Origin: an uncultured Pseudomonadota bacterium
GTDB lineage: Bacteria; Babelota; Babeliae; Babelales; JAUPTZ01
Assembly (NCBI GenBank): GCA_964429275.1
Contig: CAYSBJ010000002.1
Span: forward strand, 1 to 64,000
Reading direction: 5' to 3'
DNA length: 64,000 nucleotides
Shown: positions 9,512-38,879 of the stretch, piece after piece
How the letters are laid out: each line of letters opens with the position of its first letter
Position numbering within the stretch: the stretch's first letter is position 1
The notes under the pieces: model-generated
What the model was told of the DNA's origin: nothing
What the model saw: the letters and a program-made list of their open reading frames with translations, nothing else
Database searches by the model: none
Made by a program: the position numbers and the translations under genes

Positions 9512-9771
9512 CGTTCTTGTGTCCGTCGACTCTCACATTTCAACCGTAAAGAACCATAGTGTGTATCATTTTTTTTCTCTGCGTCTAGGCGTACTTCCTC
9601 ATTTCATTTCTTTTTTCTGTTGGTGGCCTCACGGCCAATCATAATTATAAGCCACGGCTGGGCGTTTTGCGTCCCTGCAGCCCGTGGATCTCACCATTTG
9701 CGTGTTGTTTGCCGTTCGCCCCATAGAGGCGACGCGGCGGTAATGAAAAAACCAACTTGAAAAGAAACATT

Positions 9772-10755
9772 ATGAAAACAAAGAAGTTCTTTTTTATCAG
9801 CAGCTTTATTGCTGTCGTTGTGGCTCTTATTGGCCTGCAACTTTCTACATCTAATACTCATTTACCACTTATCGCTATCGCTAACTACGGCCCGCATTCC
9901 TCTTTGGAGGCAACAATTACGGGCGTCAAGGAAGAATTGGCGCGGGGCGGTTTTATTGAAGGGAAAACGGTACGGTATGCGGTGGCCGATGTCGGTTTTG
10001 ATATCGCCTTGATTCCACAAATGCTGGTACAACTTAAGCGCCAACAGCCTAAACTTATGGTCGTATTGGCTACACCTCTGGCACAGTGTGCCAAAGGCAT
10101 GATAACCGATATCCCGCTCGTTTTTGCCGCCGTTACCGATCCGGTAGCAGCAGGGCTGTTAACGAGCCCGGTTGCCTCCTGCGGGAATGTAACCGGGAGT
10201 GCAGAAAAGCAAGATATGGCTGCCGTGCTGGATTTTGCGCGTGCGTTGTTGCCTGGTACGCAACGGGTTGGGGTGTTGTATGGTACCGGTGAGAGCAATG
10301 ACTGTGCCCTGGTGGAAATGATGCAAGAAGCGGCACAAGCGGCCGGGATGAAGGTACTGGCGGTGCCGGTTGATCAGGCACGTGATGTGCCGGTGCGTAT
10401 GCAGCAGCTCAAAAACAAAATTGATGTGCTTTATGTTGGCAGTAGCGGCCCTATTCAGCCGGCATTACCGATTATTGCCGGCATCGCCGATGAACTTGGT
10501 ATTCCAGTTATAAATGTTGATGAAGCAGCAGTGCGTGATGGTCTTGTGCTTGCCAGTTTTGGGGTTGATTTCAATCGAGTTGGCGCAAATGCCGGAAAGC
10601 TTGCGGCACAGATTCTCGAGGGGACCTCAGTAGTAGCCCTACCGCCGTTATACCCAACACTCCATGATCATAGAGGGCTCATTAATCGCCGACGAGCTGC
10701 TATGTTGGGGCTGACTGTTCCGCATGAGTTTAACGCTGTTACGTTGGTGGGATAG
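9772..10755 (+). CDS. ABC transporter substrate-binding protein (PF04392, TrpX-like aromatic amino-acid binding)
   Basis: N-terminal TM; HSSLE, IPLVFAAVTDPVAAGL..GNVTG motifs; likely ATG at 9772 within ORF 9757-10755. Confidence 0.88.
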   Translation: MKTKKFFFISSFIAVVVALIGLQLSTSNTHLPLIAIANYGPHSSLEATITGVKEELARGGFIEGKTVRYAVADVGFDIALIPQMLVQLKRQQPKLMVVLATPLAQCAKGMITDIPLVFAAVTDPVAAGLLTSPVASCGNVTGSAEKQDMAAVLDFARALLPGTQRVGVLYGTGESNDCALVEMMQEAAQAAGMKVLAVPVDQARDVPVRMQQLKNKIDVLYVGSSGPIQPALPIIAGIADELGIPVINVDEAAVRDGLVLASFGVDFNRVGANAGKLAAQILEGTSVVALPPLYPTLHDHRGLINRRRAAMLGLTVPHEFNAVTLVG

Positions 10756-10757
10756 TT

Positions 10758-11489
10758 ATGATTAAAATTACACAATTAACGAAGTCTTTTTCTGGGCAGG
10801 CAGTGCCGACGCTCAATGAGCTCAATTTGCAGGTCGCTTCCGGAGAATTTTGTGTGTTGCTCGGCACCAACGGCTCCGGTAAATCAACGCTAATGCGAGT
10901 GCTTTCTGGTGAATATATTGTTGACGCTGGCAGTCTACAGGTTGCGGGAGTTGACATGACACAGCAGGATCGTAGTTCTGTTATTGCTTCGGTGGTGCAA
11001 GATGTGAATGCGGGGACTATTGCCTCGCTGACGGTGCTTGAAAATATGGTGCTGAGTTTACGCCGAGGGAGTAAGGGGAGTTTCTCCTCGTATCAAAACG
11101 ATGCCGCGCGCATTGCCGCATTGATCGAAGGGCTTGGCGTTGGGCTTGAGCGCTTTTTACATCAGCCCATGTCTACTCTATCTGGTGGCCAACGACAAAT
11201 GATTGCCACGCTTATGGCGGTGCATTCTCAGCCGAAGGTATTGCTATTGGATGAACACACTGCTGCGCTGGACCCCAAAATGCAACAGATACTTATGGCG
11301 TATACGGCCCATGCCGTAGAGACCTATGAAATTACCACACTGATGGTGACCCATAAACTGGAGGATGCCGTGAAATATGGAGACCGCTTATTGATGCTTA
11401 AAAATGGTCGGATAGCCCTGGATGCTGCGGGGGCAGAAAAGAGGCGCCTAACGGTTCCTGAATTGCTACAACTGTTTAATGGCGGCTAA
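10758..11489 (+). CDS. ABC transporter ATP-binding protein (TrpZ-like)
   Basis: GTNGSGKST, LSGGQRQ, LLLDEHTAALDPK. Confidence 0.92.
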   Translation: MIKITQLTKSFSGQAVPTLNELNLQVASGEFCVLLGTNGSGKSTLMRVLSGEYIVDAGSLQVAGVDMTQQDRSSVIASVVQDVNAGTIASLTVLENMVLSLRRGSKGSFSSYQNDAARIAALIEGLGVGLERFLHQPMSTLSGGQRQMIATLMAVHSQPKVLLLDEHTAALDPKMQQILMAYTAHAVETYEITTLMVTHKLEDAVKYGDRLLMLKNGRIALDAAGAEKRRLTVPELLQLFNGG

Positions 11490-11497
11490 GCCGTAGG

Positions 11498-11599
11498 CGT
11501 CATTGCGAGGAACGTAGTGACGTGGCAATCCAGAGAAAAAAAGAATATTGTGTTTACCTGGATTGCCACGTCGCCTCTACGAGGCTTCTCGCAATGACG
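11498..11599. repeat. CGTC-ended composite palindromic element (REP/RPE-like), complete copy
   Basis: CGTCATTGCGAG...GACGTGGCAATCCAG--CTGGATTGCCACGTC...CTCGCAATGACG, with nested inverted repeats. Confidence 0.85.
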
Positions 11600-11647
11600 T
11601 GCTTTTAGCACGTCAAAAGATTCAACAAAAATTTAAAGGTACATCAT

Positions 11648-12484
11648 ATGATCATTGATTTATTAACGACGAGTCTCGTGCAAGGCCTTCTTCTTTCTTG
11701 TGTCGCGTGTGCCGTGATGATTTCGTTTCGCCTCTTGCATCTACAAGATATTACTGTGGAGGGGGCTTACCCTTTGGGCGGAGCTATTGCTGCGCAGTTA
11801 TTACTATGCGGTTACGCGCCGGGGATCGCCGTTTTAGGCGCCATGTTGGGCGGTGGCATGTTGGGGGTGCTGACTAGCCTGGTGCATTTGCGTTTAAAAA
11901 TACATGCATTATTAGCTGGTATTATCGTGAATACGATGGCGTATAGCGTTAGCTTGCGCATTATGGGAAAACCAAATCTTGCCTTGTTTAGTACGCGATC
12001 ACTTTTTGTGGGGAGTCAGACAGGTTCTATTTTTCTGTTGGCCCTTCTTATTGTCAGTATTACGATAGCACTATACGTTTTTTTGCAGACTGAGTATGGA
12101 CTGCGCCTGCGCGCTGTTGGGCTGCATCCAAGTTTTGCACGTCGTCAGGGGATTCCGGTTGCACAGTATATCTGCTTGGGCATGGGAATAGCCGGCATAC
12201 TTTCTGGTCTTGGCGGAAGTTTGATGGTGCAAATGCAGCGGTACATGGATATTGGTATGGGGGTTGGCGTGGTTATTCACGCTCTCGCAGCGCTTATGCT
12301 GGGCGAGGCGGTGATAGGGAGTAAACCAGTGCGGCAGATGTTACTCGCGCCGGTGATAGGAAGTTTGATTTATCAACAACTGCAGGGCCTTGCCTTTATG
12401 GCAGGGTTGATGCCATCTGATATTAAATTCTTTACCGGATTGCTCGTTTTGGCGGCAATTGCGGTTCGTCAACGAGAAGCGTAA
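11648..12484 (+). CDS. ABC transporter permease (TrpY-like)
   Basis: Polytopic; DITVEGAYPLGG, GLRLRAVG, DIGMGVG motifs. Confidence 0.88.
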   Translation: MIIDLLTTSLVQGLLLSCVACAVMISFRLLHLQDITVEGAYPLGGAIAAQLLLCGYAPGIAVLGAMLGGGMLGVLTSLVHLRLKIHALLAGIIVNTMAYSVSLRIMGKPNLALFSTRSLFVGSQTGSIFLLALLIVSITIALYVFLQTEYGLRLRAVGLHPSFARRQGIPVAQYICLGMGIAGILSGLGGSLMVQMQRYMDIGMGVGVVIHALAALMLGEAVIGSKPVRQMLLAPVIGSLIYQQLQGLAFMAGLMPSDIKFFTGLLVLAAIAVRQREA

Positions 12485-16681: not shown

Positions 16682-16708
16682 TGGACTGGTGTGGACTCCC
16701 ATACAGCC

Positions 16709-19514: not shown

Positions 19515-19542
19515 TTCTTCAAGCAGTTAACTTTCGTTGGCC

Positions 19543-21668: not shown

Positions 21669-21676
21669 AACTCCTC

Positions 21677-22255
21677 CTATTGAGCGTCAAAGGCTGCAAA
21701 GTATTCATTAACTTTGCGTGTCATACGCTTGTTATTATAGAGCGGCAGGATCTCGTATACCTTTTCCCTGCTAAGGGGGCCAAGGTTGTCAAAATGATAA
21801 CTCTTATTTAGATACAGGATATCCAAAAAGGCTCGCTCAGGGGTAGCAGCATGAAAATTTCCTCTGTTTTCTACGCCAATACCGCTGGTAAGAAGGGGGC
21901 CTTTGAGCTTGTGAAAAGAGTACTTGTTGCCATCACATTCGATGGAGCGCGTTTGATACGTTGCCACAAAGATGGTTTCGTAATACTGAAATATAACCCC
22001 AGCTTCCGCCAGAATAGTCTCAAAGCTTACGTAAGCCGGGGTGAAAATCTTGGTACCCAGTTCGCGGCGGTCATAATTTTGGTCCTTTGCATACAGGCCG
22101 CGGCGGATGGGGTAGAGTTCCCCCTTTGTAACGTAGTAATGCAAGCGGCGACGGAGCCATTGAGAGCTTATGCCTTTTGAGAGCAAAAGGATCTCTGTAA
22201 AAGAGAAAACAGTCGATTTTGACCGAAGTATGTCGAGGATATTGCTTTGTTCCAT
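21677..22255 (-). CDS. AbiEi-like antitoxin / transcriptional regulator
   Basis: IRRGLY, YVSFET.L, ATPERAFLD.LY; directly upstream of AbiEii. Confidence 0.85.
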   Translation of the reverse strand: MEQSNILDILRSKSTVFSFTEILLLSKGISSQWLRRRLHYYVTKGELYPIRRGLYAKDQNYDRRELGTKIFTPAYVSFETILAEAGVIFQYYETIFVATYQTRSIECDGNKYSFHKLKGPLLTSGIGVENRGNFHAATPERAFLDILYLNKSYHFDNLGPLSREKVYEILPLYNNKRMTRKVNEYFAAFDAQ

Positions 22256-22273
22256 TTTTCATCCTGTGAGCTG

Positions 22274-22345
22274 AATGTTACATGTGGTGTAACCTTTAGC
22301 TCATATCATACCGGTTTTAGAGGAGCTAAGGCAATAAACAGGGGG
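22274..22345 (-). promoter_or_regulatory. Putative promoter and palindromic operator of the AbiE operon
   Basis: TTGCCT-N18-TATGAT on the minus strand; GTTACA-N5-TGTAAC at 22277-22293. Confidence 0.6.
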
Positions 22346-22358
22346 CAGTTGCAGGTGT

Positions 22359-26021: not shown

Positions 26022-27173
26022 ATGCAAAAAAATGAACGCCTTGGCCGCTCCAGAGAGCATGTGGTGGGCGGCGAACGCTATGCGACTTATATACCGGCAT
26101 CATTGCCGCCGTCACCACCAATTGATTTGTCGAAAATTCAAAGGAATCTGGATCGTGCCTTAACTGCTTTGGCCGAGCTGAAGGTAACGGCAGCGGTGAT
26201 CCCTAATGTATCTTTATTCATATATATGTATGTGCGTAAAGAGGCCCTTCTTTCTTCTCAGATTGAGGGGACGCAAAGCTCTTTTGCCGACTTGATGCTT
26301 TTTGAGAATGACCAAAAGCCGCAGGTGGCGCTGGATGATGTGGAAGAGGTGTATAATTATGTATGTGCTATTCAGTATGGTCTCAAGCGGATGCAAGACG
26401 GGATGCCACTTTCGCTGCGCCTTATAAAGGAGATGCACGGTATTTTACTGCAAGGAACGCGGGGGGTGCACAAACTTCCGGGAGAATTCCGCCGGTCGCA
26501 AAATTGGATTGGTGGCTCTCGGCCGGGAAATGCCTTGTTTGTGCCACCAGCGCCAGAAGATTTAATGGACTGCCTGGGCGCCTTTGAGAACTTCTTACAT
26601 GATGACACTACTGGGTTGCCAGTATTGGTCAAGATTGGTCTTGCCCACGTGCAATTTGAGACTATCCATCCATTCCTTGACGGTAATGGCCGCCTTGGGC
26701 GCTTGTTGATTACCTTGTTGCTCTGTCATCACAGCCTCTTAACCGAGCCGGTGCTGTATTTGAGTCTGTATCTGAAGCAGCACCGCATGCTCTATTACGA
26801 AATGCTTCAGCGGGTACGCCTGCAGGGTGATTGGGAAGTATGGTTGGAGTTCTTTCTTGACGGAGTTTACACCACCGCGACTCGTGCAATGGTAACAGCC
26901 CGTAAGATTAATGAACTGTTTGCTGTCGATATGGTGACAATTGAACGAATGGGTCGGGTGCGGTTTTCTGCCGTGCGCGTGTTTGAAATACTCAAAAAGC
27001 TGCCACAAATATCAGTGCCAGCTTTGGTGCACTCTTTTGATTTTCATCCGTCGACCGCTCGTGATGCTTTGGAGGCACTGACGGATGCTGGCATCCTGAA
27101 GGAAATTACTGGCAAAAAGCGGGATCGGGTGTATGTGTACCAGCAGTATTTGGCTCTTCTTGAGGAAGAGTAG
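26022..27173 (+). CDS. Fic family protein with C-terminal HTH
   Basis: HPFLDGNGRLGR catalytic motif; SSQIEG inhibitory-helix motif; EITGKKRDRVY tail. Confidence 0.93.
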   Translation: MQKNERLGRSREHVVGGERYATYIPASLPPSPPIDLSKIQRNLDRALTALAELKVTAAVIPNVSLFIYMYVRKEALLSSQIEGTQSSFADLMLFENDQKPQVALDDVEEVYNYVCAIQYGLKRMQDGMPLSLRLIKEMHGILLQGTRGVHKLPGEFRRSQNWIGGSRPGNALFVPPAPEDLMDCLGAFENFLHDDTTGLPVLVKIGLAHVQFETIHPFLDGNGRLGRLLITLLLCHHSLLTEPVLYLSLYLKQHRMLYYEMLQRVRLQGDWEVWLEFFLDGVYTTATRAMVTARKINELFAVDMVTIERMGRVRFSAVRVFEILKKLPQISVPALVHSFDFHPSTARDALEALTDAGILKEITGKKRDRVYVYQQYLALLEEE

Positions 27174-28095
27174 CGTCCGCTTCTGCATCCCCCAGCCACA
27201 CACCGGTGCGTATGAGGTGGTCAAGCTGGCGAAAGGTGCGGGTAGCGCAAAAAGTCTGTGACAACAGTTCCACGCGCCGGTAGAGAAAGAGTTTGCATGG
27301 GATGCCGCGCGCGGCGCAGACATCGCCGACTTCCTGCAGCACTGGTCCCATGTCATCAAAAAATACGATCATTGATGGTTTTATCTTTGCATAATCAAGA
27401 AATGCCCCAAGGACCGTGCCTTTATCTGTTTGATTGGTGCACAAAAGACCTTTGTGCAGCGTCGGGTAGTTGCCGCGAGACTGGGGCATGCAGCGGACGT
27501 TAGGATCTGGTTGTGAGTGTGACTTAGGTATGTGTGTATACTCCCTCACGGTTTTAAACGTGGTGTCTGGGTATGTGGTGTTAAATGTTACTCCCAGTTC
27601 CTTGAGTACTGAGTAGCGCCATTCTTCCGCGTGGGGGATGATGCCAAGCTTGCCGGTTAGCATGTTGGTAAGGCCCAGGACGGTTATATGTCGTTGTCTG
27701 AGTGAGTTAATAAGTTCTGAAATACCATCTTCAATGAGTACCCGCGGGGCCTGTAGGAATACGTGGCTTGCTAAATCTTCTTGCGCTGCTTTTTTGTATA
27801 AATGGGGAAATTTGATGAGTAATTGAATCCAAAACCACCAACTCAGGTCTGACTTTCTGACGTTTGCAAAAGAATCTGGCGCATAGGTGAGGGTGTCGTC
27901 TACATCAAACAATACCAAACTATTTTGATCAAGCGCGGTAAGCGTTTCGATGCACTGGGGGTCGGTGTATGAATAAATGCGGTGCACTGGATGGAGAGAG
28001 GTGAGGTCGATTATGTAGGAGATTAAACCGCATAAAAGAAGGAAGCCCGCAGCGCATTGCCAAAATCGCCACAGCATTTGTTTGCGTGTTTTCAT
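27106..28095 (-). CDS. HAD-like DUF2608-type protein
   Basis: LVLFDVDDTL, GLT, KG..L..FL, IVFFDD; N-terminal TM. Confidence 0.7.
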   Translation of the reverse strand: MKTRKQMLWRFWQCAAGFLLLCGLISYIIDLTSLHPVHRIYSYTDPQCIETLTALDQNSLVLFDVDDTLTYAPDSFANVRKSDLSWWFWIQLLIKFPHLYKKAAQEDLASHVFLQAPRVLIEDGISELINSLRQRHITVLGLTNMLTGKLGIIPHAEEWRYSVLKELGVTFNTTYPDTTFKTVREYTHIPKSHSQPDPNVRCMPQSRGNYPTLHKGLLCTNQTDKGTVLGAFLDYAKIKPSMIVFFDDMGPVLQEVGDVCAARGIPCKLFLYRRVELLSQTFCATRTFRQLDHLIRTGVWLGDAEADATLPQEEPNTAGTHTPDPAFCQ

Positions 28096-28159
28096 GTTAT
28101 TTTTTTCTTAGTAGAGATCTCTTTGTGCTGATACATGGCTTACTCTTCAAATATACTTG

Positions 28160-28377
28160 TTTGAGAGCAATCTTACCGGTCGTTGCCCAGAAAAACAAGG
28201 AACTCCTCCTTGATTCCCGAAAAAAGCAGCCTCGCAGGATATGTTTCCCTGTGTCATTCGCCCAGTAGGAGCGGTTCTTGGAAGAATCGGGGGGCTTGAA
28301 CAAGTAGAAATGCTGGTTACATAGTGCTTTTTGCCGGATTTGGGGGGTTGCAAAACATGGTTTTTGGTATAGGCTAT
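28160..28377 (+). repeat. 218-bp identical direct repeat, copy 1; candidate structured ncRNA or leader
   Basis: Identical by eye to 32706-32923; both precede paralogous SBP cassettes. Confidence 0.9.
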
Positions 28378-28447
28378 TCCATGCCGTTTGGCACGGTAGC
28401 TGAGATTTCAGCTGTAGTGTTTAATCAACTATTGAGGAGTAATCATT

Positions 28448-29536
28448 ATGAAAGTGACTCAATCGGGATCCCCCCGTTTTAATGCTAAAGCACCAGGCAA
28501 AAAGCTGGTGTCAATTAACTGCAACAACCGTCAATGGGATGTTGAAGTACAAAATCTTAAAGAACTTGCTGAAGGCCCAGTCCTTTTTGTCCTTAATCAG
28601 GATGGAAATGGTTGGGCCTATGATTTTATTAACGCTTTTAAGTCTGCCTATACTGAATGGTCTGCTGATGGAAGTTTTCCTGAACATGACCATATTTTAA
28701 TGAATGAATCCCGTGGCGATCTTCAGAGTAAGCTGTATGAGCATCCGTTTATTCAAGGATTTTCTCGAAAGCCTGCGCGTATTATAACTGTTGGTGACGC
28801 TGCGAGCGCAGAAGTTGCTCGCTACCGTGTTGCATGGGGCTTAACCAGCTGTATTCAACAGCTCTTTTGTGTGATTGGTGACCCTGAAGCACTTGATTTG
28901 GTTGACATGAATGGTCAACTTTTGGCGAATACGAATGGTGTATATGCGGTTGAGGCACGTAGCCTTACTAAGCAAATTCGTTCACTGAGGAGTTTGAGCC
29001 GGGTTGTTAAAACAGTAGCTATTATTTCTGGGTATAGTGGTCGCTTTGATTCAATTGCTCTGCAAAAAGACAAAGCCGCTCAGAAGATTATTCAAGAGTG
29101 TGAGAAGTTTGGCATGCGAGCGTTGCGTGTTTATATGGTGGGGGATGAAAATATTGCTGGTTATCTTGAAGGTTTTGGCTCTGTGTGCGAAGCCGTCATC
29201 ACATTGCGTGATGACGCTGTCTATGGGCATCTGGACGAAATCGCAAGTTTCTGCACTAAAAATAGAATTATTCACTTTGCGTCCGAACTTTCCTCTGTAG
29301 CTCGCGGAGCAGCTATGGGATTTGGGAATGCGCCAGCGGCGTATGTGCCTTCACTTATGAATTTGATGTGGCAGCATAAGGAAACGCATCTGCCATTGAA
29401 TTCCTTTGAACTTGAAATTGTTGAAGAACCAATTGAGGTTCGACACAATATGAGCAGTATTCGTGCGCAAGTACGGGATCTGACTGAGGAAAAAGAAGAT
29501 TTGCTTGAAATGACGTCAATTCACGCAGTGTATTAA
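28448..29536 (+). CDS. Divergent PF04392-like binding-fold protein A1 (no signal peptide)
   Basis: QLFCVIGDP..L, SSVARGAAMGFG; paralogue of 32989. Confidence 0.7.
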   Translation: MKVTQSGSPRFNAKAPGKKLVSINCNNRQWDVEVQNLKELAEGPVLFVLNQDGNGWAYDFINAFKSAYTEWSADGSFPEHDHILMNESRGDLQSKLYEHPFIQGFSRKPARIITVGDAASAEVARYRVAWGLTSCIQQLFCVIGDPEALDLVDMNGQLLANTNGVYAVEARSLTKQIRSLRSLSRVVKTVAIISGYSGRFDSIALQKDKAAQKIIQECEKFGMRALRVYMVGDENIAGYLEGFGSVCEAVITLRDDAVYGHLDEIASFCTKNRIIHFASELSSVARGAAMGFGNAPAAYVPSLMNLMWQHKETHLPLNSFELEIVEEPIEVRHNMSSIRAQVRDLTEEKEDLLEMTSIHAVY

Positions 29537-29602
29537 AAAGAATGTGAGGGGTGTGCCGTGAAGAGGGCGCGCCCCTCGATTGTTTGGTAACGAGAAAAAT
29601 AT

Positions 29603-30631
29603 ATGAAACAATCGTCTCTCTTTCAGGATAAGTATCTTTACTTGGTGTGTAGTTTATTAGTGTTGTTGATTGCTGGATACTTGGCTATTCATGGTCGCTG
29701 GATCTTGCGCGAACCCTACGTCATAGTTATAACGAAAGATTCCCCATTTTTTAATGGAGTCTGTGAAGGGGTCAAGTCGATGCAAGCCCAGCAACGTGGG
29801 TGTAAGGTTACATTTAAATATGTTCCTGGTTGCGCAGACAGCGCTACTATTCAGCAAATTATTGAAGAAGTTATTAATGAACATCCTGACCTCATTATGC
29901 CGGTGGGAGTAACGCTATCTCAATTGTGTGTCAATCTAGTGAGTAAACGCCAATTGAACATACCGATAGTTTTCGCTGGTCCGGGAGACCCACTTAATCA
30001 AGGACTAGTTTCTGCGCTTGATGGTCGAGCTGAAGCTGTAACCGGAGTTTCTTTAGTTCCGCTTGATTATAATAAGCCTCCTGAGATGTTGTTAAGGTGT
30101 CGTCCTTTAGCAAAAAATGTATTACTTCCTTATTTTCCAAACGCAGCGGGGGGGTTGGTTGAACGATCTGCGGAGCTTGTTACACAATACTTAATAGGCC
30201 GGGGGTGCAAGGTCATGGCTTTACCTCTGTATTCATTATCTGATGCGCAAGAAAAGCTTAAGGGGTGCTTCGGCGAAGCTGATGTAGTAATGTATCTTGA
30301 GGGGTGCTTTTTATCTGACTCTTACACACTTTTAACAAAGCAATGTGATCAGTACAAAATTCCTTTGTTTGCAGGTGACATTCAGGCCGTTATTGGTGGT
30401 GCTGCTTTTGGATATGGCGTTTTTGCGCAGTCGATAGGAGAAGTTGCAATGCGAATGTCATATGACATTTTGGTGCATCGAAAAAAAACTGGAGATATAC
30501 CAGTGAAATTTATGCATGAATCGCGGAAAGTCGCATTAAATCTTGATGCAGCAGAAAAGCAGGGCCTTGCAATAACACCGGAGCTGCTAGCGTGGGTGGC
30601 AAAAGAAGGAGTGGTGTATCGTGGAAACTAA
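29603..30631 (+). CDS. PF04392-like substrate-binding protein B1 (N-terminal TM)
   Basis: IPIVFAGPGDP...GLV, VTGVS, GAAFGYG, NLDAAEKQGL. Confidence 0.8.
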   Translation: MKQSSLFQDKYLYLVCSLLVLLIAGYLAIHGRWILREPYVIVITKDSPFFNGVCEGVKSMQAQQRGCKVTFKYVPGCADSATIQQIIEEVINEHPDLIMPVGVTLSQLCVNLVSKRQLNIPIVFAGPGDPLNQGLVSALDGRAEAVTGVSLVPLDYNKPPEMLLRCRPLAKNVLLPYFPNAAGGLVERSAELVTQYLIGRGCKVMALPLYSLSDAQEKLKGCFGEADVVMYLEGCFLSDSYTLLTKQCDQYKIPLFAGDIQAVIGGAAFGYGVFAQSIGEVAMRMSYDILVHRKKTGDIPVKFMHESRKVALNLDAAEKQGLAITPELLAWVAKEGVVYRGN

Positions 30632-31592
30632 TGTAATGATTCCAAAGAAGCGAGCTGCTGTTTTGACCAAAAGGTTGGATTACCACACGCAGGTTTTGCA
30701 GGGATTTCTTGAAGAGCAAAAGGTACTGCAAAAAGAAGATGTGGTTGAGATCAATGTTATTTTTGTAGAACAGTTTGATTTTGAAAAAATTGCGGTAAAA
30801 GTTAATGAAATTATCGCATATAAGCCTGACATAGTGGTGCCGATTGGTGTTTTGTGTACACAGGCTATTGTGCATGCTTTTCGGGAGCGAAATATTGATA
30901 TTCCGGTGCATTTTTGCGGAGTTACCAATTATCAGGATATTGGTCTTCATGAATTATCTTCTGAGGGCAATCTTATTACTGGTGTTAGTCTTGGGTATGC
31001 TCCGTATCTTACTGCTGTTCGCGCATTGCTATGGGCCAAGCCGACAGCAAAATCAGTCTTAGTGCCATACAATCCTCTCAGCGAAGGTGGTTTGTTAACG
31101 ACGGCAGCTTATTCGATTCAAACGTTTTTGCGGTCGCGCGGTGTGTCAGCGGTATTATTAGCGCTCAAGCAGGGCGAGAATGTTGTTTCTGTGGTGCGCT
31201 CGAAGATAGGGTCAGTCGATGTTCTTATGGGCCTGGAGGGCTCTGAATTGGATTCTTATTCTGAAGAACTGATTTCTTTGTGTGAAGATCATACGGTTAC
31301 TTATTTTTCGTGCTCTCTAAAAGCGGTCCAAAAAGGTGCTGCTCTTGGTATGGTGAGTTTGCCACGACTTGTCGGTGTGGTTTCCTTTCGGCGAGTGTTG
31401 CAGATGTTAACTGGTGGTATTCGACCAGAGCATAAACGCATTATTTTGCTTAAGAATGAAGGTCGTCGTATGGCGTATAACCTTAAGGCTTTTGCGCGAC
31501 AAGGGCTTACTATGCCTGCAGCAAAGTTATATATGCTTGAGAATAGCGAGGTTGATGGTAACTTTTATCGCTTGATAGACAGTGAGGAATGA
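30621..31592 (+). CDS. PF04392-like protein C1 (no signal peptide)
   Basis: PDIVVPIG, IPVHFCGV, ITGVS, GAALG. Confidence 0.75.
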   Translation: METNVMIPKKRAAVLTKRLDYHTQVLQGFLEEQKVLQKEDVVEINVIFVEQFDFEKIAVKVNEIIAYKPDIVVPIGVLCTQAIVHAFRERNIDIPVHFCGVTNYQDIGLHELSSEGNLITGVSLGYAPYLTAVRALLWAKPTAKSVLVPYNPLSEGGLLTTAAYSIQTFLRSRGVSAVLLALKQGENVVSVVRSKIGSVDVLMGLEGSELDSYSEELISLCEDHTVTYFSCSLKAVQKGAALGMVSLPRLVGVVSFRRVLQMLTGGIRPEHKRIILLKNEGRRMAYNLKAFARQGLTMPAAKLYMLENSEVDGNFYRLIDSEE

Positions 31593-32557
31593 TGATGGAA
31601 AAACCGGTTATTAAAGAGTTTATGCTTCCTGAAGGGAAGCCGCGAGCTCCTCGCATTGCGCTTCTCTCTCGCGCTATGTTCCCGTATCACAGTCGTGTTA
31701 TGTCTGGATTTCTTCGTAAGGTAGAGGCATGCCCTGATTTGAATTGGCGTCCCATTGTCTTTTTTTGCAAAGAGCCTCGGGTGGATGTTATGCATGAACA
31801 AATGCAAGAAATCCGAAATGATGAGTATGACTTGGTTATCTCGATAGGCGCTTTGTATTCTTCGGTTGTTGCTGAGCATGTACGTGAAAAAAAGCTTACG
31901 ACGCCTTTTGTCTTTAGTGGTGTTACCGACCCTTTTCGTATTGGTATTTTACCAAAAGATGGATCCCAGGAAGGAATAACTGGTGTTGTGCGTGAGCAAG
32001 TTCCTTATACGTGGTTGGCAGACTTTTTGGTGATAATAAGGCGAAATATAAAGCGGGTTCTTATTCCTTATTACCAAAACTCTGAGCTGGGACATTTAGA
32101 AGAGCGGCTTCGTATGCTTGCCGATACGTTTGCAACGTATGACGTTCAAGTAGTATTGATGCCGGTCGGCACCGTTGATGACGTAGTGCCGAGTGTTTTG
32201 CGCCATATGGGTGTTATAGATACAGTTATCATACCCGAAGGTAGTTTCGTTGCTGATTTAACAGTGGCGATATCTAAACTATGTAAACAATACCATGTTA
32301 TGCTGGTTGTCCACACTATGGAGCAGAGTGCCGCAAGTATAGCCGTTACTTTTACGCAAGATATTGCGCAACTTGGTGAAGCATTATTTGATATTGCGGG
32401 GAAAATTTTAACTGATGGCAAAAAACCTTCAGAAATACCGATTTTAACGTTGCCAAACGACCGGAAAATTATTGTTGATGTGGAGGCGTGCGTTGAACAG
32501 GGGGTCGATCTTGACCCAATAGCGCTGTTTTGCCTCAATGAGAGCATTGTTATATAA
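31589..32557 (+). CDS. PF04392-like protein D1 (no signal peptide)
   Basis: DLVISIG, PFVFSGVTDP, GKKPSEIPI. Confidence 0.78.
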   Translation: MMMEKPVIKEFMLPEGKPRAPRIALLSRAMFPYHSRVMSGFLRKVEACPDLNWRPIVFFCKEPRVDVMHEQMQEIRNDEYDLVISIGALYSSVVAEHVREKKLTTPFVFSGVTDPFRIGILPKDGSQEGITGVVREQVPYTWLADFLVIIRRNIKRVLIPYYQNSELGHLEERLRMLADTFATYDVQVVLMPVGTVDDVVPSVLRHMGVIDTVIIPEGSFVADLTVAISKLCKQYHVMLVVHTMEQSAASIAVTFTQDIAQLGEALFDIAGKILTDGKKPSEIPILTLPNDRKIIVDVEACVEQGVDLDPIALFCLNESIVI

Positions 32558-32705
32558 GGGCTGTCCGAGAATTCAATGACTACACACTACTCGCGTAAAA
32601 AAAAATAGGTAAACGTTCGATGCTCAAAAAAAAAGCTGTTAGCACAGCAAAATCAAAAGTTTACCTATGTTTGAAAGAATACCAGATCTTATTATGATGT
32701 CCTTT

Positions 32706-32923
32706 TTTGAGAGCAATCTTACCGGTCGTTGCCCAGAAAAACAAGGAACTCCTCCTTGATTCCCGAAAAAAGCAGCCTCGCAGGATATGTTTCCCTGTGT
32801 CATTCGCCCAGTAGGAGCGGTTCTTGGAAGAATCGGGGGGCTTGAACAAGTAGAAATGCTGGTTACATAGTGCTTTTTGCCGGATTTGGGGGGTTGCAAA
32901 ACATGGTTTTTGGTATAGGCTAT
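32706..32923 (+). repeat. 218-bp identical direct repeat, copy 2
   Basis: Identical by eye to 28160-28377. Confidence 0.9.
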
Positions 32924-32988
32924 GTCGTACAACCATGGTTGTATTTGTAATCTTTTAGTTCAACACCAAACGAGTAAAAGGATGTATT

Positions 32989-34071
32989 ATGAAGTTAGTA
33001 CGAAGCGGATCCCTCCACTTCAATACAAAAGGCAAAGCGAAACACCTCGTTTCTTTCGAGGTTGCCGGATTTCGCGTGGAATTCGACGCTGAGAAACTTA
33101 AAGAGAATATTCAGGGCCCAATTGCATTCGTGTTTAATCAACACAATAATGCGTGGGCCCATGATTTTATGTGCGCATTTAAAAATGCAGTAGGCGATTG
33201 GATGGAAGATGGCAAAGCGCCGGACTTTGATCATATCTTAACTACTGAATCTGATAGTGAATTAGCGGCAAAGATAGTGAAACACCCGTTTTTTGCGAGA
33301 AATGCAAAGAAACGAGCGCTTCTTTTGACCGTTGGCAATGTGGCCAGTGCTGAGGTTTGCCGAATGCGGTACGCCTACAGCCGAAGCGATATTCCTCAAT
33401 TATTTTGTGTGACCGGTGACCCTGAAAAGCTCGAATTGACTTACGAAGGGCGTTTGTTGCCAAATACCAACGGCATCTACATGACCGGTGCTCGCACCGT
33501 TAAATCTCAGATCCGTTCTCTAAAGAGTGTAAGTAAAGTAGTAAAAACGGTAGCTATTGTATCTGGTGTACGCCATGGTTCCGACCTTGCATATGCAGAA
33601 ACAGAGGCCGAAGCGGAGAAATTGGCGATAGAATGTGCTAACAATGGCATGCGCAGTATTCGGCTACATCTTTCTGATGGCATGGATGTTCTAGGTGGCT
33701 TAACACCATTAGCGTCTCTTTTTGATGCAATTATTACGTTGCGTGATGATACAGTGTATTCGCTGGCAGGAGAAATATCTGCTTTCTGTGATAAAAACAA
33801 GATCGTTCACTTTGCATGCGACCTTTCCTCGGTTGCTCGTGGTGCGGCAATTGGTTTTGGTACATCAGCGGTTGCTCATGTGCCTGTTCTCATTGACTTT
33901 ATCCGCCGCAGTGCGTCGCTGCATAAGCCACTTCATCAGTTGGGGCTGGTCGTTGCGGAAGAGCAGGTGGTCATGCACAAGAACGTAAGCAGCATTCTTA
34001 AGCAAGTGCGCGATCTGACGGAAGAAAAGATTGACTTGCTGAGCATGCGAGATATTCAGGCAATTTATTAG
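32989..34071 (+). CDS. Divergent PF04392-like protein A2 (no signal peptide)
   Basis: Collinear with A1; shared QVRDLTEEK.DLL tail. Confidence 0.7.
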   Translation: MKLVRSGSLHFNTKGKAKHLVSFEVAGFRVEFDAEKLKENIQGPIAFVFNQHNNAWAHDFMCAFKNAVGDWMEDGKAPDFDHILTTESDSELAAKIVKHPFFARNAKKRALLLTVGNVASAEVCRMRYAYSRSDIPQLFCVTGDPEKLELTYEGRLLPNTNGIYMTGARTVKSQIRSLKSVSKVVKTVAIVSGVRHGSDLAYAETEAEAEKLAIECANNGMRSIRLHLSDGMDVLGGLTPLASLFDAIITLRDDTVYSLAGEISAFCDKNKIVHFACDLSSVARGAAIGFGTSAVAHVPVLIDFIRRSASLHKPLHQLGLVVAEEQVVMHKNVSSILKQVRDLTEEKIDLLSMRDIQAIY

Positions 34072-34137
34072 GGGCAAAAGAGGAGCGTTATTCTGTGGGG
34101 GCGCTCCTCTTTTCGCATAGTATGGGATGGGCGTGCT

Positions 34138-35151
34138 GTGAAGATACGAGTGAGTATTAATCGTGCCGTGTGGGTTGTTTTTTCCTTAGGAGCCTTGGCA
34201 GGTAGTTTTGGTTATTATATGTGGGTTCGTAAGTTTACCCACTCAAAGCCGCGTATTGCAGTTTTGACGAAAGACTCGCCATTTTTTAACCAGGTGTGCA
34301 ACGGCATTGAAGCAAGTGCTGCGGATTATTTTAAAAATGGTTGTGAGATTCGCTATTTCTATGGCAAGGGGACCGATAAAGTTATTTACCAGACCATGGT
34401 TGAAGAAGCTTTTATGAGTAAGCCAGATCTTATCGTGCCGGTTGGGGTAAGTTTTGCCCAGCTGTGTGTTGCCGCCGCTTGCAAGAGATGTACAGCAATA
34501 CCGGTTGTTTTTGCGGGGCCTGGTGAGCCGGTTGAGCAAGGGCTTGTTTCGTCGCTAGGAGCGCGGCAAGAGGCAATAACTGGAATTTCATTAACACCCG
34601 TTGATTACTTTGAGCCGGCTCGGTTATTGCTAGCGGCTAAGCCAACGGTGAAAAATATTTTGATCCCATATTTCCATGCAGCTTCGGCAGGAATATTGGA
34701 AGGAGTATCCATTAAACTGAAAGACTTTTTTAGTCAGCAGGGTGTCTTTGCAATTCCGTTGCCACTCAGGGATATTAATGAGGCGAAGGAGCTTATTGCG
34801 CCATTTATGAGCAGGGTGGACACAATTATGTGTCTTACGGGTGATACTATTGCGGAAGCAAATGACGTCCTTGTGAAGCTGTGTAATCAGCATAGTGTTA
34901 CTTTATTTGCCAAAGATATTGAGTGTGTTCGCGATGGAGCAGCCCTTGGGTATGGAGTTGAAGCTTCTTTGATCGGGAGAAAAGTTATGCAGCTTGCCGA
35001 TAGCGTGCTGAATAAGAAAATATACCCTGGCAGCATACCAATTCAGTTTGTGGATGGTGATCGCATGCTGGTGCTAAATCGAGAAGCAGCTGCGCTACAG
35101 AGAATAACTATTACGCCAGAATTGTTAGCACTGGCTCGGGAGGTGTTCTGA
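34138..35151 (+). CDS. PF04392-like substrate-binding protein B2 (N-terminal TM)
   Basis: TKDSPFFN shared with B1; IPVVFAGPGEP. Confidence 0.8.
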   Translation: MKIRVSINRAVWVVFSLGALAGSFGYYMWVRKFTHSKPRIAVLTKDSPFFNQVCNGIEASAADYFKNGCEIRYFYGKGTDKVIYQTMVEEAFMSKPDLIVPVGVSFAQLCVAAACKRCTAIPVVFAGPGEPVEQGLVSSLGARQEAITGISLTPVDYFEPARLLLAAKPTVKNILIPYFHAASAGILEGVSIKLKDFFSQQGVFAIPLPLRDINEAKELIAPFMSRVDTIMCLTGDTIAEANDVLVKLCNQHSVTLFAKDIECVRDGAALGYGVEASLIGRKVMQLADSVLNKKIYPGSIPIQFVDGDRMLVLNREAAALQRITITPELLALAREVF

Positions 35152-36194
35152 TGACACGAGAATTTTACGCTGCGGGCGCTAAGCAAATGCGTCAAGCAGA
35201 ATTGCGGCAAAAAAGCTTTGATATTGTGGTGTTTGCTCAAGAATCACCGGTTGAAAGTAGCTACTTGGATGGCTTTCTGAGTGAGTTGGCAACTAAAACA
35301 TCAGCGAAGCCAAGAATCGACCTTATTGCGCATAATATTAGCTGGATGAAGGCATACGCCGCTGCGACGGCAATTGTGGATACGTCTCCGCAGGCAATAA
35401 CAACAATTGGGCTGCTGTGCAGCCAGATGATGCGCCAGGTTCTGGATGAACGCAAGCTTGATATCCCGTTATTTTTCTTGGATGTGGAGCGCCCGGATCT
35501 TTTTGGTTTGCAGGCATCGGTGCAGCATGTACACGGATCCACTGGGGTGAGTAATGGACAGCCAATGGCTTTGGCTAGTGCACGGATGCTTTTGTTTGTG
35601 CGTCCTGACGTTAGGCATGTGGTATTACCGTTTAGCCTTACGGCGCATGGGGGGAACCTGGTGAATGCGGCGGCGTTAATCAAGCGTTTTTTTGAAGATA
35701 AAGGAGTCAAAGTCTCATTGGTGCCATTCCGCGCCACCGAGAGTCCTGTGCCGCGGACAATGCTATTTTTGGAGGCTGCGAGCGTTGTTATGTGCTTTGA
35801 AGGGTGCGATATCTTGGATTATAAAGAGATGCTCCTGGGTGAATGTAAAAGTCGCAATGTAATGGTTTTTGGTGGTGATATTGAAATGATTAAAGCGGGC
35901 GCTGCAGCTGGATTTGTTTTGGATCATAGAATAGCCGGAAAAGCTCTTGCAATACGTCTTTTTAAGCACTTGTGGCACGGTGTGCCAATGTTTTTGCTGC
36001 CGAATTCTATGCTTGGATCTAATGCACGGTGTTTAGCCATTAATCAAACGGTTGCTACTCAGTACGGTATAAGATTTGATGGTCCTCTTTATAAAATCCT
36101 TAAAAATGGCGTCATTTTTGGTACTGCGTCATTTGATGAAACAGGTATTGTAGAAGGTTTTGATATTCCAGAACGCGAGGAGATTGATCTATGA
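35151..36194 (+). CDS. PF04392-like protein C2 (no signal peptide)
   Basis: IPLFFLDV, TGVS, GAAAGF, LAINQ. Confidence 0.7.
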   Translation: MTREFYAAGAKQMRQAELRQKSFDIVVFAQESPVESSYLDGFLSELATKTSAKPRIDLIAHNISWMKAYAAATAIVDTSPQAITTIGLLCSQMMRQVLDERKLDIPLFFLDVERPDLFGLQASVQHVHGSTGVSNGQPMALASARMLLFVRPDVRHVVLPFSLTAHGGNLVNAAALIKRFFEDKGVKVSLVPFRATESPVPRTMLFLEAASVVMCFEGCDILDYKEMLLGECKSRNVMVFGGDIEMIKAGAAAGFVLDHRIAGKALAIRLFKHLWHGVPMFLLPNSMLGSNARCLAINQTVATQYGIRFDGPLYKILKNGVIFGTASFDETGIVEGFDIPEREEIDL

Positions 36195-37126
36195 CTACTC
36201 CCAAAAGAATTGCAGTGCTTACTCGGGCCCGGTTTTCGTATCATTTGCAGCTAGGATGGGGATTTTTGGAGGCCATGAATCAGTGTCTTGATGATGTTGA
36301 CTCATGGATGCCTATCATGTTTATGTGCCGTGAAGTGCTCCCTGAAGTTATGCATGAACAAATGAAAGAAGCTACCTCTGGCAAATACGACCTTATTGTT
36401 TCTTTTGGGGCTTTATGGACCGATGTTGCTGCGAAATTTATTCGTGAAAATAGCATTAAAACGCCACTCGTTTTTGGAGGGGTTACTGATCCCGTTGCAC
36501 TGGGTGTATTGCCTGAATTAAGGTCTACGAATCAGATCACCGGCATATATAGAACGCCAGCCTCATGGACGGAGGTTGCAGAAATGTTGCATTATATTAA
36601 GCCTTCGATGAAGCGCATCCTTATCCCCTTTCGTGAGCATGCTGAAAATGGCCTCATTAAAAAAGCTCTTGAAGAGGTGCGAGATCGCTATGCTGAAGCT
36701 GGAGTGGAATGCATTTTGTTTCCGGTGACAAAGTTTCGTATTTGCCCGGAAGAGATTTATACGCTTCTTTTATCGGTAGATACATTATGGTCGTTTGAGG
36801 GGGGCTTCCTGGATATCTTTAGCAGCTCGATGATTGAGATATGTAATATGCGCCATATTACTTTCTTTTCGAATAATGCGGCTCATATTGCGCAAGGCGC
36901 TGCACTGGTGTATGCCGCTCCTGACTTTAGCGTCATGGGAGAGGCGCTGCTGAAACAGATGTACCAAATTCTTGAGGAGGGCAAAAAGCCTGAAGAGGTC
37001 GATATCATCAAATTACCGGATGACCGGCGCATGATGGTGAACCTTGAAGCTGCAAAACTACAGGGACTTGACCTTGATAAAGTGCTCTTAATGGCCATGC
37101 GTAATGGGTTAATGATTATTAAATAG
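36191..37126 (+). CDS. PF04392-like protein D2 (no signal peptide)
   Basis: VMHEQM shared with D1; PLVFGGVTDP. Confidence 0.78.
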   Translation: MTTPKRIAVLTRARFSYHLQLGWGFLEAMNQCLDDVDSWMPIMFMCREVLPEVMHEQMKEATSGKYDLIVSFGALWTDVAAKFIRENSIKTPLVFGGVTDPVALGVLPELRSTNQITGIYRTPASWTEVAEMLHYIKPSMKRILIPFREHAENGLIKKALEEVRDRYAEAGVECILFPVTKFRICPEEIYTLLLSVDTLWSFEGGFLDIFSSSMIEICNMRHITFFSNNAAHIAQGAALVYAAPDFSVMGEALLKQMYQILEEGKKPEEVDIIKLPDDRRMMVNLEAAKLQGLDLDKVLLMAMRNGLMIIK

Positions 37127-37149
37127 CCTCTGTTGGTTGTGGGAATGCA

Positions 37150-38199
37150 ATGACTGAAAAGAAGAGTCTTTTTATAGGTTTTTTAATAACGTCTGTTGTG
37201 GGGCTGTTTGTCGGGCGTTATGTAGTGCCATACAAGGATCTAGTAATGACGCGTAAGCTCCGAAAGAATGTAGCAATTCTTACAAAGCCTTTTGAATACC
37301 ATCAGCAAGTTCTGCATGGTGCGTTAACTACGTTAGGCCTTGAGCAACGAGTGGATCTATTCCCTGATGTTTACACCGCGACTGGTGATCAAATCAGTGA
37401 GAAAAATATTGTTGAAGAGGCGCTGGCCGCAAAACCAGACCTTGTTCTTGCCATTGGTGCTGGCCTTGCTCAAGTGGCCAAAAACACCATTCAAAAGAGG
37501 CGTTTGCCAATTCCTCTGGTGTTTGCGGGAGCAACAGACCCGGTGGCCCTTGGATTGGTTGATTCAGTGGAAGTGCCGGGGTGCAATGTAACCGGCTCAA
37601 ACATGCTTCCGTATGATCGGGTGCTGATGGTGAAGTACCTTTTACTTCTGCTGCCGCACATAAGACGCATAGGGTTGCCATACACTGCTCAAACATCAAG
37701 TGTGGACATAGAGATCCATGCGCAGGAAATTAAGGAATACTGCGCCGCGCGTGGCGTTGAGGTTATATTGTTGCCTATTGATGTTCCAGAGGCCAATGGA
37801 CTTCAGTTGGTACAAGGGATTATTAATCAAATAGATGCGTTAATTTACCTTCCGGTATGTTACGTGTGCAAAATTGCCAGTGGTCTGGTGAAGTTGTGTG
37901 CTGAGCATCATGTTGTTTTGTGTGCGGGTGACGAGTCGGCTTTTGCCAACGATGAAGATGGTGCACCGTTTTCGTATGGGCCGCGCGCAGGGTTAACTGG
38001 AAAGTATGCCGCAGAGCAAGTCAAAAAAATTCTTGTTGAGGGACAGTCTGCTGCCAGGATGCCGGTTCAATATGTTGAACGTGGCTGTCGATTTGCGATC
38101 AATCTGAATGCGCTAAAAAAGCAAGATATTGCTATAAATCCAGATTTATTGCTACTTATTTCCCATGGTGAAGTTCTTAAGGACGGCGTTGAATGGTAA
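37150..38199 (+). CDS. PF04392-like substrate-binding protein E (N-terminal TM)
   Basis: IPLVFAGATDPVALGLVDS..PGCNVTG. Confidence 0.82.
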   Translation: MTEKKSLFIGFLITSVVGLFVGRYVVPYKDLVMTRKLRKNVAILTKPFEYHQQVLHGALTTLGLEQRVDLFPDVYTATGDQISEKNIVEEALAAKPDLVLAIGAGLAQVAKNTIQKRRLPIPLVFAGATDPVALGLVDSVEVPGCNVTGSNMLPYDRVLMVKYLLLLLPHIRRIGLPYTAQTSSVDIEIHAQEIKEYCAARGVEVILLPIDVPEANGLQLVQGIINQIDALIYLPVCYVCKIASGLVKLCAEHHVVLCAGDESAFANDEDGAPFSYGPRAGLTGKYAAEQVKKILVEGQSAARMPVQYVERGCRFAINLNALKKQDIAINPDLLLLISHGEVLKDGVEW

Positions 38200-38265
38200 A
38201 AGGCACTGTTGCATCCTATCCTTGAGGGGCCATTTCTTTGTATGAAAAACGGCTTATCAACCGTA

Positions 38266-38485
38266 TTATTCTAGCATCACGTGCGATTGATGCAACCTGC
38301 CGTCGCTAGCCTCATGGCTGGTTGTTATGCCAATTGCAGCCAAAAAGTCATAATCGTGTGAAATGACGAGCAACGCTCCCGGGTATTCTTTGAGCACTTC
38401 AATAATGTGTTGCCGCGTCTCCAGATCAAGATTATTGGTGACTTCATCCAGAATGAGGAGTTTGGGGGCGCGGGCGCCAATCAGT
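38266..38485 (-). pseudogene. C-terminal remnant of an ABC-F-type ATPase
   Basis: PKLLILDEVTNNLD...YPGALLVISHD without Walker A; truncated at a palindromic element. Confidence 0.75.
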
Positions 38486-38557
38486 GCTACGCTCGCAACC
38501 GCCTTCGATACTACGGTGTGTCTCGCCTTGGCCCCCAAAGGGGCGACGGCGGATGAC
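38486..38557 (-). repeat. Truncated CGTC element with nested modules A+B
   Basis: Reverse complement GTCA[tccgccgtcgcccctttgggggccaaggcgagaca caccgtagtatcgaaggcgg]TTGCGAGCGTAGC. Confidence 0.8.
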
Positions 38558-38879
38558 CCGCAAAGTGCGTCTTGAAAATTAACATTGACCCGTTATAACG
38601 CGTCTGCATAATAATGTTTTGTTGCTCAAAAGAACCTTTCGGGCGTTTTTTCATGCTTAAATATGAAATGTATCTGCGATAGCCTCGGGCCAGGGTACCC
38701 CAAGGAGCGAGTTCGGCTTTTTGCACAGCAAAAAACGCATGTTTGAGCGGGAGGGGCACCCCTGGTCGGGCGCAGCAGCCTTTATGGGTTCAATGCCACG
38801 GGGGGTCCTTTTGCTATTTTCCCCCTTCTATGCTACCTTTTCCCCCCGTTACCAGGAGTTTTAAAAAGGAGTCTGATCT

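Follow-up and report, generated by a model that had tools for sequence, protein, structure and literature searches.

Solved members of Pfam family PF04392 (ABC_sub_bind) bind tyrosine, phenylalanine or tryptophan, and the relevant passages of two papers describe them as single exported subunits encoded beside their transporter (PMC6816091, PMC10443332). Here we examine nine consecutive paralogues of these TrpX-type proteins, at positions 28448-38199 of the first 64,000 nucleotides (nt) of contig CAYSBJ010000002.1, a stretch we call the window and which comes from a reduced, Dependentiae-like intracellular bacterium. The likeness to the solved proteins (CD0873, 6hni; VC_1101, 3lkv; SP1069, 3lft) is one of Pfam family for six of the nine and of fold for the protein we call A1. 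Unlike those proteins, the nine belong to a set of 51 orphans, have no adjacent translocator, lack an export signal in six cases, and carry altered pocket motifs. The best of them scores 74.4 bits against the TrpX equivalog model (NCBIfam NF041285; cutoff, 390 bits), for which the canonical binding protein encoded at 9757 in the same window itself reaches only 165.5 bits.

Large expansions of orphan binding proteins are known as a kind. Those of the tripartite tricarboxylate transporter (TTT, or "Bug") receptors in Bordetella, Cupriavidus and Rhodoplanes also combine many binding-protein genes with very few translocators, and they share with our system lineage-specific duplication and the many-to-few relation (here, 51 orphans to 2 permeases). 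They belong to another binding-protein family, TctC/PF03401, which is of a different fold class from PF04392. TTT genes form tandem arrays, including one of nine genes, with identities mostly below 50% within an array, and their density is similar to that found here (434 copies in 8.2 Mb, compared with 51 in 1.17 Mb), although the passages concerned mention neither fixed multi-subfamily cassettes nor a leaderless majority (PMC5994714). TTT-type members are extracytoplasmic receptors of large-genome, free-living or facultative hosts, whereas our host is an obligate intracellular bacterium with a 1.2-Mb genome, and 27 of its 51 orphans have no N-terminal hydrophobic segment.

The type I binding-protein fold also occurs in the cytoplasm, in the amide sensor AmiC, which holds AmiR, and in the ligand domains of LacI/GalR regulators such as RbsR, which is encoded beside its homologous exported binding protein, RbsB. 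The leaderless members of our array resemble these proteins in having that fold without an export signal. In contrast to LacI/GalR, Pfam reports PF04392 as the sole domain and finds no helix-turn-helix DNA-binding domain in any of the nine proteins, A, C and D included; in contrast to AmiC, there is no AmiR-like partner gene. Both comparators belong to other Pfam families, and neither is massively expanded.

A preliminary description of this DNA did not recognize the array as a described system. Full-text literature, which did not extend to the supplementary tables of two Dependentiae genome papers, yielded no description of an orphan PF04392 expansion in Dependentiae. We tentatively favor, as close to an even prospect, a reading in which the array is one cassette with an inserted set of genes, belonging to a family-specific TrpX-type radiation of outer, tethered and inner, leaderless ligand binders. 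Paralogues are normally lost from the reduced genomes of obligate intracellular bacteria. Here, 4.5% of 1.17 Mb is given over to some 50 copies, under selection, of a single transporter accessory fold, and over half of these copies are without the export signal needed for that fold's textbook job.

Nine paralogues of one protein family

The array consists of the following genes, with lengths in amino acids (aa):

28448..29536, + strand: A1, leaderless subfamily A paralogue, 362 aa, N-terminal extension of a beta-hairpin and a helix
29603..30631, + strand: B1, membrane-anchored subfamily B paralogue, 342 aa, hydrophobic segment at residues 11-31
30621..31592, + strand: C1, leaderless subfamily C paralogue, 323 aa, GTG start with AAGGAG upstream
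31589..32557, + strand: D1, leaderless subfamily D paralogue, 322 aa, ATGA overlap with C1
32989..34071, + strand: A2, leaderless subfamily A paralogue, 360 aa
34138..35151, + strand: B2, membrane-anchored subfamily B paralogue, 337 aa, hydrophobic segment at residues 10-30
35151..36194, + strand: C2, leaderless subfamily C paralogue, 347 aa
36191..37126, + strand: D2, leaderless subfamily D paralogue, 311 aa, ATGA overlap with C2
37150..38199, + strand: E, membrane-anchored subfamily E paralogue, 349 aa, hydrophobic segment at residues 6-22, closing the ancestral cassette

The preliminary description had reported nine consecutive, co-oriented open reading frames (ORFs) of PF04392-like paralogues across this interval, and the ORF list gives exactly those coordinates, all on the + strand. 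The family motifs it quoted are present in the translations. Six proteins pass the Pfam gathering cutoff for PF04392 of 25.9 bits (B1, 106.6; C1, 53.7; D1, 49.2; B2, 91.3; D2, 51.2; E, 101.9), C2 and A2 fall below it (22.7 bits, E-value 6.7e-5, and 15.6 bits, E-value 0.0095, respectively), and A1 has no Pfam match at all, to PF04392 or otherwise. All nine nevertheless align over their full length with one another and with the canonical copy at 9757. Among 30 Atlas feature matches, 29 were to clusters with PF04392 alone and the remaining one to a cluster with PF04392 and PF13407.

We made the fold comparison on A1, the most divergent of the nine. Its AlphaFold (AF2) model, built on an alignment of 41 sequences, is confident (pLDDT 90.5, pTM 0.85), and the three best Protein Data Bank entries retrieved with Foldseek (the top five chains) are the PF04392 structures 6hni/6hnj, 3lkv and 3lft, with E-values of 3e-12 to 2.7e-11 and target-normalized template modeling scores of 0.60 to 0.77; LacI-family and sugar-binding proteins match more weakly (E-values of about 1e-7). 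On the strength of this model, A1 is placed in the PF04392 fold. In the model, A1 residues 1-44 (28448-28580) precede the first strand of the fold and contain a beta-hairpin (residues 19-33) and a helix (34-41), and 12 relatives of A1 likewise start with a hydrophilic N-terminal stretch, judged for them from sequence. Relatives of A1 are scarce: a search of 1.84 billion proteins returned just 69 representatives at an E-value of at most 1e-3, and 9 at 1e-30. The closest named relatives of B1 are "Candidatus Dependentiae" metagenome proteins, at 53% and 43% identity.

Positional counterparts in the two halves of the array had been said to match, least clearly for C. This holds for A (47% identity), B (41%) and D (36%). 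C1 and C2 share only 25%, and their match of 100 bits is below those of C1 to B2 and to D2 (120 bits each), yet they fall in one clade. In a 59-member tree with paired branch supports, the clades are A (100/100), B (100/99), C (91/95), D (100/98) and E (97/96), and C2 sits in a subclade with C3, C4 and G3_C2 (100/100).

A five-gene cassette with an inserted second set

We compared the window's own genome (G000) with a 98%-complete congener (G003), a close relative (G004) and a genome of another genus (G005). The array had earlier been laid out as A1-B1-C1-D1 followed by A2-B2-C2-D2-E, with conservation of this order in relatives named as a check. The A-B-C-D order does recur in the congener, which has A-B-C-D with a transmembrane (TM) segment on B, the same order and overlaps, and 50 to 59% identity to cassette 1. 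The partition of the array has to be revised: what repeats is a cassette of five genes (A, hairpin, B-C-D-E), and the second A-B-C-D set is a mosaic insertion before E, related to a third cassette at C2:105614-110778. We draw the unit this way because E lies directly 3' of D1 in G004 and because cassette 3 holds all five genes. In G004, B1-C1-D1 is followed by E after 13 nt, the second A-D set is missing, and identity to the array is 88 to 98% (98% for A1, 92% for E).

Cassette 3 (A3-B3-C3-D3-E3) lies 70 kb from the array, and a fourth cassette is found at C1:435409-439620. Cassettes 2 and 3 are 86% identical over 2441 nt, from upstream of A to the start of C, and then diverge; A2 is 96% identical to A3 (C2:105614), and B2 82% identical to B3. 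D2 is 66% identical to its G003 orthologue. The position of E is variable, the congener's second cassette reading A-B(TM)-E(TM)-C-D, and in one cassette the B slot is occupied by an E-type gene. Cassettes of another type, X(no TM)-Y(no TM)-Z(TM), are found three times, and a fourth related array contains an extra gene; in the 59-member tree, the sister group of X is A (98/91) and that of Y is D (95/81). In G005, a pair with and without a TM segment is orthologous to a pair in G000.

The overlaps of B, C and D at their stop and start codons, claimed earlier, measure 11 nt (B1/C1), 4 nt (C1/D1), 1 nt (B2/C2) and 4 nt (C2/D2), and GGAG-like sites precede most starts in the array; together these features fit co-translation. 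Four noncoding features accompany the genes:

28156..28377, + strand: upstream element copy 1, ahead of A1, 222 nt, repeated ahead of A2
29545..29578, + strand: GC-rich hairpin in the A1-B1 spacer, 13-pair stem with 9 GC pairs
32702..32923, + strand: upstream element copy 2, ahead of A2, 99.55% identical to 28156-28377 (blastn)
34074..34116 (approximate), + strand: hairpin in the A2-B2 spacer, followed by TTTT (RNAfold of 34069-34140, -30.4 kcal/mol)

The A-B spacers of cassettes 1, 2, 3 and 4 all fold as a hairpin of about -30 kcal/mol, and the A2-B2 spacer sequence is identical in cassette 3. Such a hairpin may be an attenuator or an mRNA stabilizer and could set the level of A apart from that of B-E. 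The 222-nt element may act as a promoter or leader; its first copy also matches the region before cassette 3 (C2:105440-105548; 110 nt, 85%). Rfam gave no match in 27500-39000, the 222-nt elements included, and promoter-like sites were no more common than in shuffled sequence (16, compared with a mean of 18.3). The two elements are nearly identical although the A1 and A2 proteins are just 47% identical, which suggests recent conversion or a mobile promoter/leader module.

Intact copies under purifying selection

A repetitive region of this kind might consist of decaying duplicates or be an artifact of assembly. The long match between cassettes 2 and 3 and the 222-nt repeat flanking cassette 2 are what such an explanation would lead one to expect, and two members of the protein family elsewhere in G000 are truncated, at 203 and 264 aa. 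In the array, however, all nine reading frames are open, and the ratios of nonsynonymous to synonymous change (dN/dS, by Nei-Gojobori) against the close relative G004 are 0.06 for A1, 0.19 for B1 (over 112 codons), 0.07 for C1, 0.05 for D1 and 0.14 for E. Ratios near 1, which had been named beforehand as a sign of decaying copies, are thus not seen. Within G000, the A2-A3 and B2-B3 comparisons gave 0.06 and 0.18; synonymous sites were saturated in comparisons with G003. The copies are intact and under purifying selection, not decaying. Contigs from an independent assembler cover 28348-32735 (A1 to D1) and 34311-38700+ (B2 to E and beyond) without differences, and orthologous cassettes occur in other genomes. 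No such contig crosses 32736-32893, inside the 222-nt repeat, so that the D1-to-A2 join rests on the original assembly and on the repeat having A1 and A2 as its only exits. Given these results, we regard decay or misassembly as extremely improbable.

Synonymous divergence between G000 and G004 (loci L003 and L004) varies eightfold among neighboring genes, from 0.12 for A1 to 0.91 for C1, which points to recombination or conversion among paralogues.

An expansion found in one bacterial family

The genome G000 comprises 1.208 Mb in 8 contigs and is 98% complete. PF04392 has 44 matches in it, and a profile built from the nine genes and the canonical binding protein finds 52 of the 1018 ORFs of at least 150 aa, a number that was stable on iteration. 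These include 51 orphan paralogues at 17 loci, which occupy 52,743 bp, or 4.49% of the three main contigs (1.17 Mb); the nine-gene array is the largest of these loci. Five other genomes of the same bacterial family, 64 to 98% complete, have 11 to 36 matches each, and 35 genomes from 20 other families of the order have 0 to 5. In a scan of 230 genomes of the phylum, in which at most 9 candidates were scored per genome, none outside the bacterial family exceeded 5 matches, and the first-look candidates numbered 46, 37, 21 and 12 in four genomes within it. Among the genomes scanned, the expansion is therefore found only in this bacterial family.

A 644-aa ORF in G005 (G005:C48, L023:432-2366, + strand) also has a family-type domain and may be a fused or duplicated form.

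Anchored and leaderless subfamilies

Only three of the nine proteins (B1, B2 and E) have an N-terminal hydrophobic segment, and A1, A2, C1, C2, D1 and D2 have none, in agreement with the preliminary description. Our anchor calls rely on our own hydrophobicity windows and on counts of lysine and arginine (K/R). Signal peptides supplied by upstream alternative starts, a possibility raised beforehand, are impossible: the ORFs already begin at the first ATG, GTG or TTG after a stop, which leaves A, C and D no start further upstream from which to gain a signal. Of all 51 orphans, 24 have such a segment by a lenient criterion and 20 by a strict one, so that 27 lack it even on the lenient count. None of the clades A to E of the 59-member tree mixes anchored and leaderless members; one clade C row marked TM by threshold begins directly with the first beta strand.

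We compared these anchors with those of 16 canonical, high-scoring PF04392 proteins from other families of the phylum, several of which adjoin permease genes. The canonical proteins have a short basic N-terminus, a helix and a K/R-rich linker, and in 13 of 16 the K/R residues following the helix outnumber those preceding it. The same excess is found in 13 of 19 anchored copies, compared with 71 of 192 other single N-terminal-helix proteins of the genome, and the mean number of K/R after the helix is 3.16 in anchored copies and 1.83 in those other proteins (p 7e-5). We considered that the anchors might face the cytoplasm (N-out/C-in) and rejected this, since canonical binding proteins show the same K/R pattern. 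Because the anchors of B and E resemble those of the phylum's transporter-linked binding proteins, B, E and Z probably carry the ordinary binding-protein anchor of the phylum and would hence be exported and tethered outside. Cysteine content was uninformative as a marker of compartment (1.95% in leaderless and 1.94% in anchored copies).

For A, C and D, the lack of a signal is joined by a lack of alternative machinery: TatC, VirB4 and FHIPEP were not found in the 98%-complete G000. For both reasons, these proteins are probably cytoplasmic by default. As background, about 1% of proteins retrieved by Pfam models of substrate-binding proteins are predicted to be cytosolic, according to the passage concerned (PMC9602780).

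The preliminary description had offered two ways in which leaderless copies might still leave the cytoplasm, piggy-back export and delivery to the host as amino-acid "sponges." The first loses ground in that TatC, its usual machine, was not found in G000, and the second in that neither VirB4 nor FHIPEP was. More generally, the leaderless copies could be exported by an unrecognized route to the periplasm, vesicles or the host and serve as effectors or sponges that bind host metabolites. The window does contain ankyrin, leucine-rich repeat (LRR), Fic and DUF2608 genes, and the organism looks host-manipulating. Type II secretion, however, requires Sec or Tat signals, and A has no extra C-terminal segment, its C-terminus aligning with the normal end of the fold. 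The passages on the phylum name only Sec, type II secretion and (type IV) pilus parts (PMC4776705, PMC6561590). Outer-membrane vesicles are mentioned as a possible effector route in one cultured member of the Dependentiae, but in the same source the putative effectors bear signal peptides (PMC6561590). Taken together, the evidence makes export of the leaderless copies distinctly unlikely.

The preliminary description also proposed a heteromeric complex of anchored and leaderless subunits. On this view, anchored B/E and leaderless A, C and D would form one membrane-attached complex, either a cytoplasmic ligand sensor or a surface structure. Several observations are consistent with such a heteromer: the fixed order and B-C-D overlaps in cassettes 1, 2 and 3 and in both cassettes of G003, the retention of anchor status by each subfamily over deep divergence, and the X-Y-Z cassettes, which again combine two leaderless genes, relatives of A and D, with an anchored one. 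Type I binding-protein folds, moreover, commonly dimerize in receptors and repressors. Against this, the anchors are like those of canonical, necessarily extracytoplasmic binding proteins, which would put B/E outside and A/C/D inside, and the variable position of E and the E-type gene in the B slot also count against it. We consider a heteromeric assembly unlikely, and less likely than separate outer and inner binders.

Our preferred reading of separate binders can be spelled out as follows. B and E would have kept the signal-anchor, would be tethered on the outer face of the inner membrane, and would serve both TrpYZ-type translocators of the genome as additional ligand receptors. A, C and D, having lost the anchor, would remain in the cytoplasm, be co-expressed with the outer receptors, and serve as a sink, chaperone or regulator for the imported ligand. 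Each subfamily would have its own ligand. If the leaderless copies do bind metabolites in the cytoplasm, they would reveal by what means an energy and nutrient parasite of limited metabolism keeps or senses its imports, and they would be a clear large-scale case of a binding protein moving into the cytoplasm. A more specific proposal, that inner and outer paralogues are made together and handle the same ligand stream, either as a system with parts on each side of the inner membrane or as a single heteromeric receptor attached to it, we judge unlikely; it would, if true, be a new functional class for the ABC binding-protein fold, and an almost metabolism-free bacterium could in this way capture, hold or sense many host metabolites.

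Candidate translocators for an orphan family

No permease or transporter ATPase lies within the nine-gene array; on this point the ORFs and Pfam agree with the preliminary description. The only ABC piece nearby is a 90-aa ABC-F-like match at 38266-38538 (- strand) with the Walker B/signature part alone, which looks like a fragment of a gene for an ABC-F protein (a ribosome-associated ATPase). A canonical system with an exported subunit had been placed at 9772, and we find it complete in the window:

9757..12484, + strand: canonical TrpXYZ-like ABC importer (binding protein, ATPase, permease), identified by Pfam matches to PF04392 (157.1 bits), ABC_tran (96.2 bits) and BPD_transp_2 (81.1 bits)

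G000 has only two BPD_transp_2 permeases, one of which is that of this importer. The second, with its ABC ATPase, is at G000:C3:192102-193780 (L043:4102-5780, - strand). Identity is 25% between the permeases and 31% between the ATPases. Judged from the ORFs of a 10-kb region around it, this second translocator has no member of the binding-protein family within about 4 to 5 kb in G000, and the same is true in G003; strong orthologues of the second permease in genomes of other bacterial families have a PF04392 match within 1.4 kb on the same strand in nine of nine cases.

In a quick tree of 87 rows, from which two very long rows were left out, the permease-1 type of binding protein, to which the canonical copy of the window and six sequences from other phyla belong, is split off by a branch of 0.58 (Shimodaira-Hasegawa-like approximate likelihood ratio test, 98). 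The node from which the expanded family radiates is a polytomy that it shares with the binding proteins linked to permease 2. These observations fit, without proving, descent of the radiation from a binding protein now missing beside translocator 2. In the 59-row tree, E had grouped with the canonical copy (82/93), but this grouping dissolved once further canonical sequences were included.

If one or two translocators are shared by the tethered copies and fed by them, this would be the first such expansion of orphan receptors in the phylum and in the protein family.

Subfamily-specific motifs at putative pocket positions

In CD0873, the residues given as lining the ligand include Val-235, Pro-236, Glu-263 and Tyr-279 (PMC6816091). 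We mapped these four positions onto the family through a HMMER sequence alignment. Each subfamily keeps a constant pattern of its own, both here and in the TDP and TGVS motifs, common to G000 and G003 (for example, N147, Y/C150 and TLRDD in subfamily A, and R/N129 and CFEGC in subfamily C), and the pocket positions differ both from the solved proteins and between subfamilies. Such subfamily-wise conservation fits the pattern that would be expected of retained but diversified binding. A seemingly family-specific invariant cysteine was dropped as a candidate feature, as it occurs in 40% of canonical members too.

These patterns bear on a further alternative, in which the leaderless copies, or all of the orphans, have given up small ligands and reuse the fold for a structural, scaffolding or enzymatic purpose. 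Residues that are nearly invariant in canonical members are degraded here (the D of TDP falls from 92% to 52%, the S of TGVS from 84% to 16%, and one glycine from 88% to 9%), the canonical xTDN loop has become (L/F)EG in most subfamilies, and cysteine, at 1.95%, is above the 0.8 to 1.3% of canonical members and the 1.24 to 1.44% of the genome's background classes. On the other hand, pocket positions are constant within subfamilies at 50 to 60% overall identity, and the A1 model retains the full two-lobe fold. A wholesale change of function is thus quite unlikely in our estimate.

The same degradation of canonical residues counts against ligand binding by every copy, and some copies may no longer bind small molecules. 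Other points also weigh against the reading of outer receptors and inner binders. Localization was derived from hydrophobicity windows and charge counts, not from a trained predictor. The tie of B and E to either translocator is one of family membership alone, and the link to permease 2 is a polytomy on a quick tree with long branches. There are few precedents for a cytoplasmic role of a transporter binding protein, and the idea of a sink or regulator is one that we infer. No recurrent partner gene was seen beside the arrays in the 35 of 69 listed flanking ORFs that were scanned, nor did any of those 35 encode a permease or ATPase. Finally, the tight translational coupling of B, C and D would equally fit subunits of one complex. 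It is with these points in mind that we hold the reading of separate outer and inner binders tentatively.

Surroundings of the array

The genes implicated above in possible host manipulation are spread over the first half of the window. An LRR protein of 1268 aa is encoded at 310-4116, and three ankyrin-repeat proteins (300, 852 and 1071 aa) at 15410-25574 (- strand), with a gene for an AbiEii-type nucleotidyltransferase toxin among them (20937-21668). Just upstream of the array, a Fic-domain gene (26022-27173, + strand) and a DUF2608 gene (27106-28095, - strand) converge with an overlap of 68 nt.

Contigs C4-C7 of G000, at 4 to 13 kb and 60 to 70% GC compared with 46% elsewhere, are probably contamination of the genome bin. 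Downstream of E, short repeats of about 60 to 117 nt per copy occur at 38486-38586 and 38669-38785, each with 5 to 7 further copies on C1, C2 and C3 at 75 to 89% identity.

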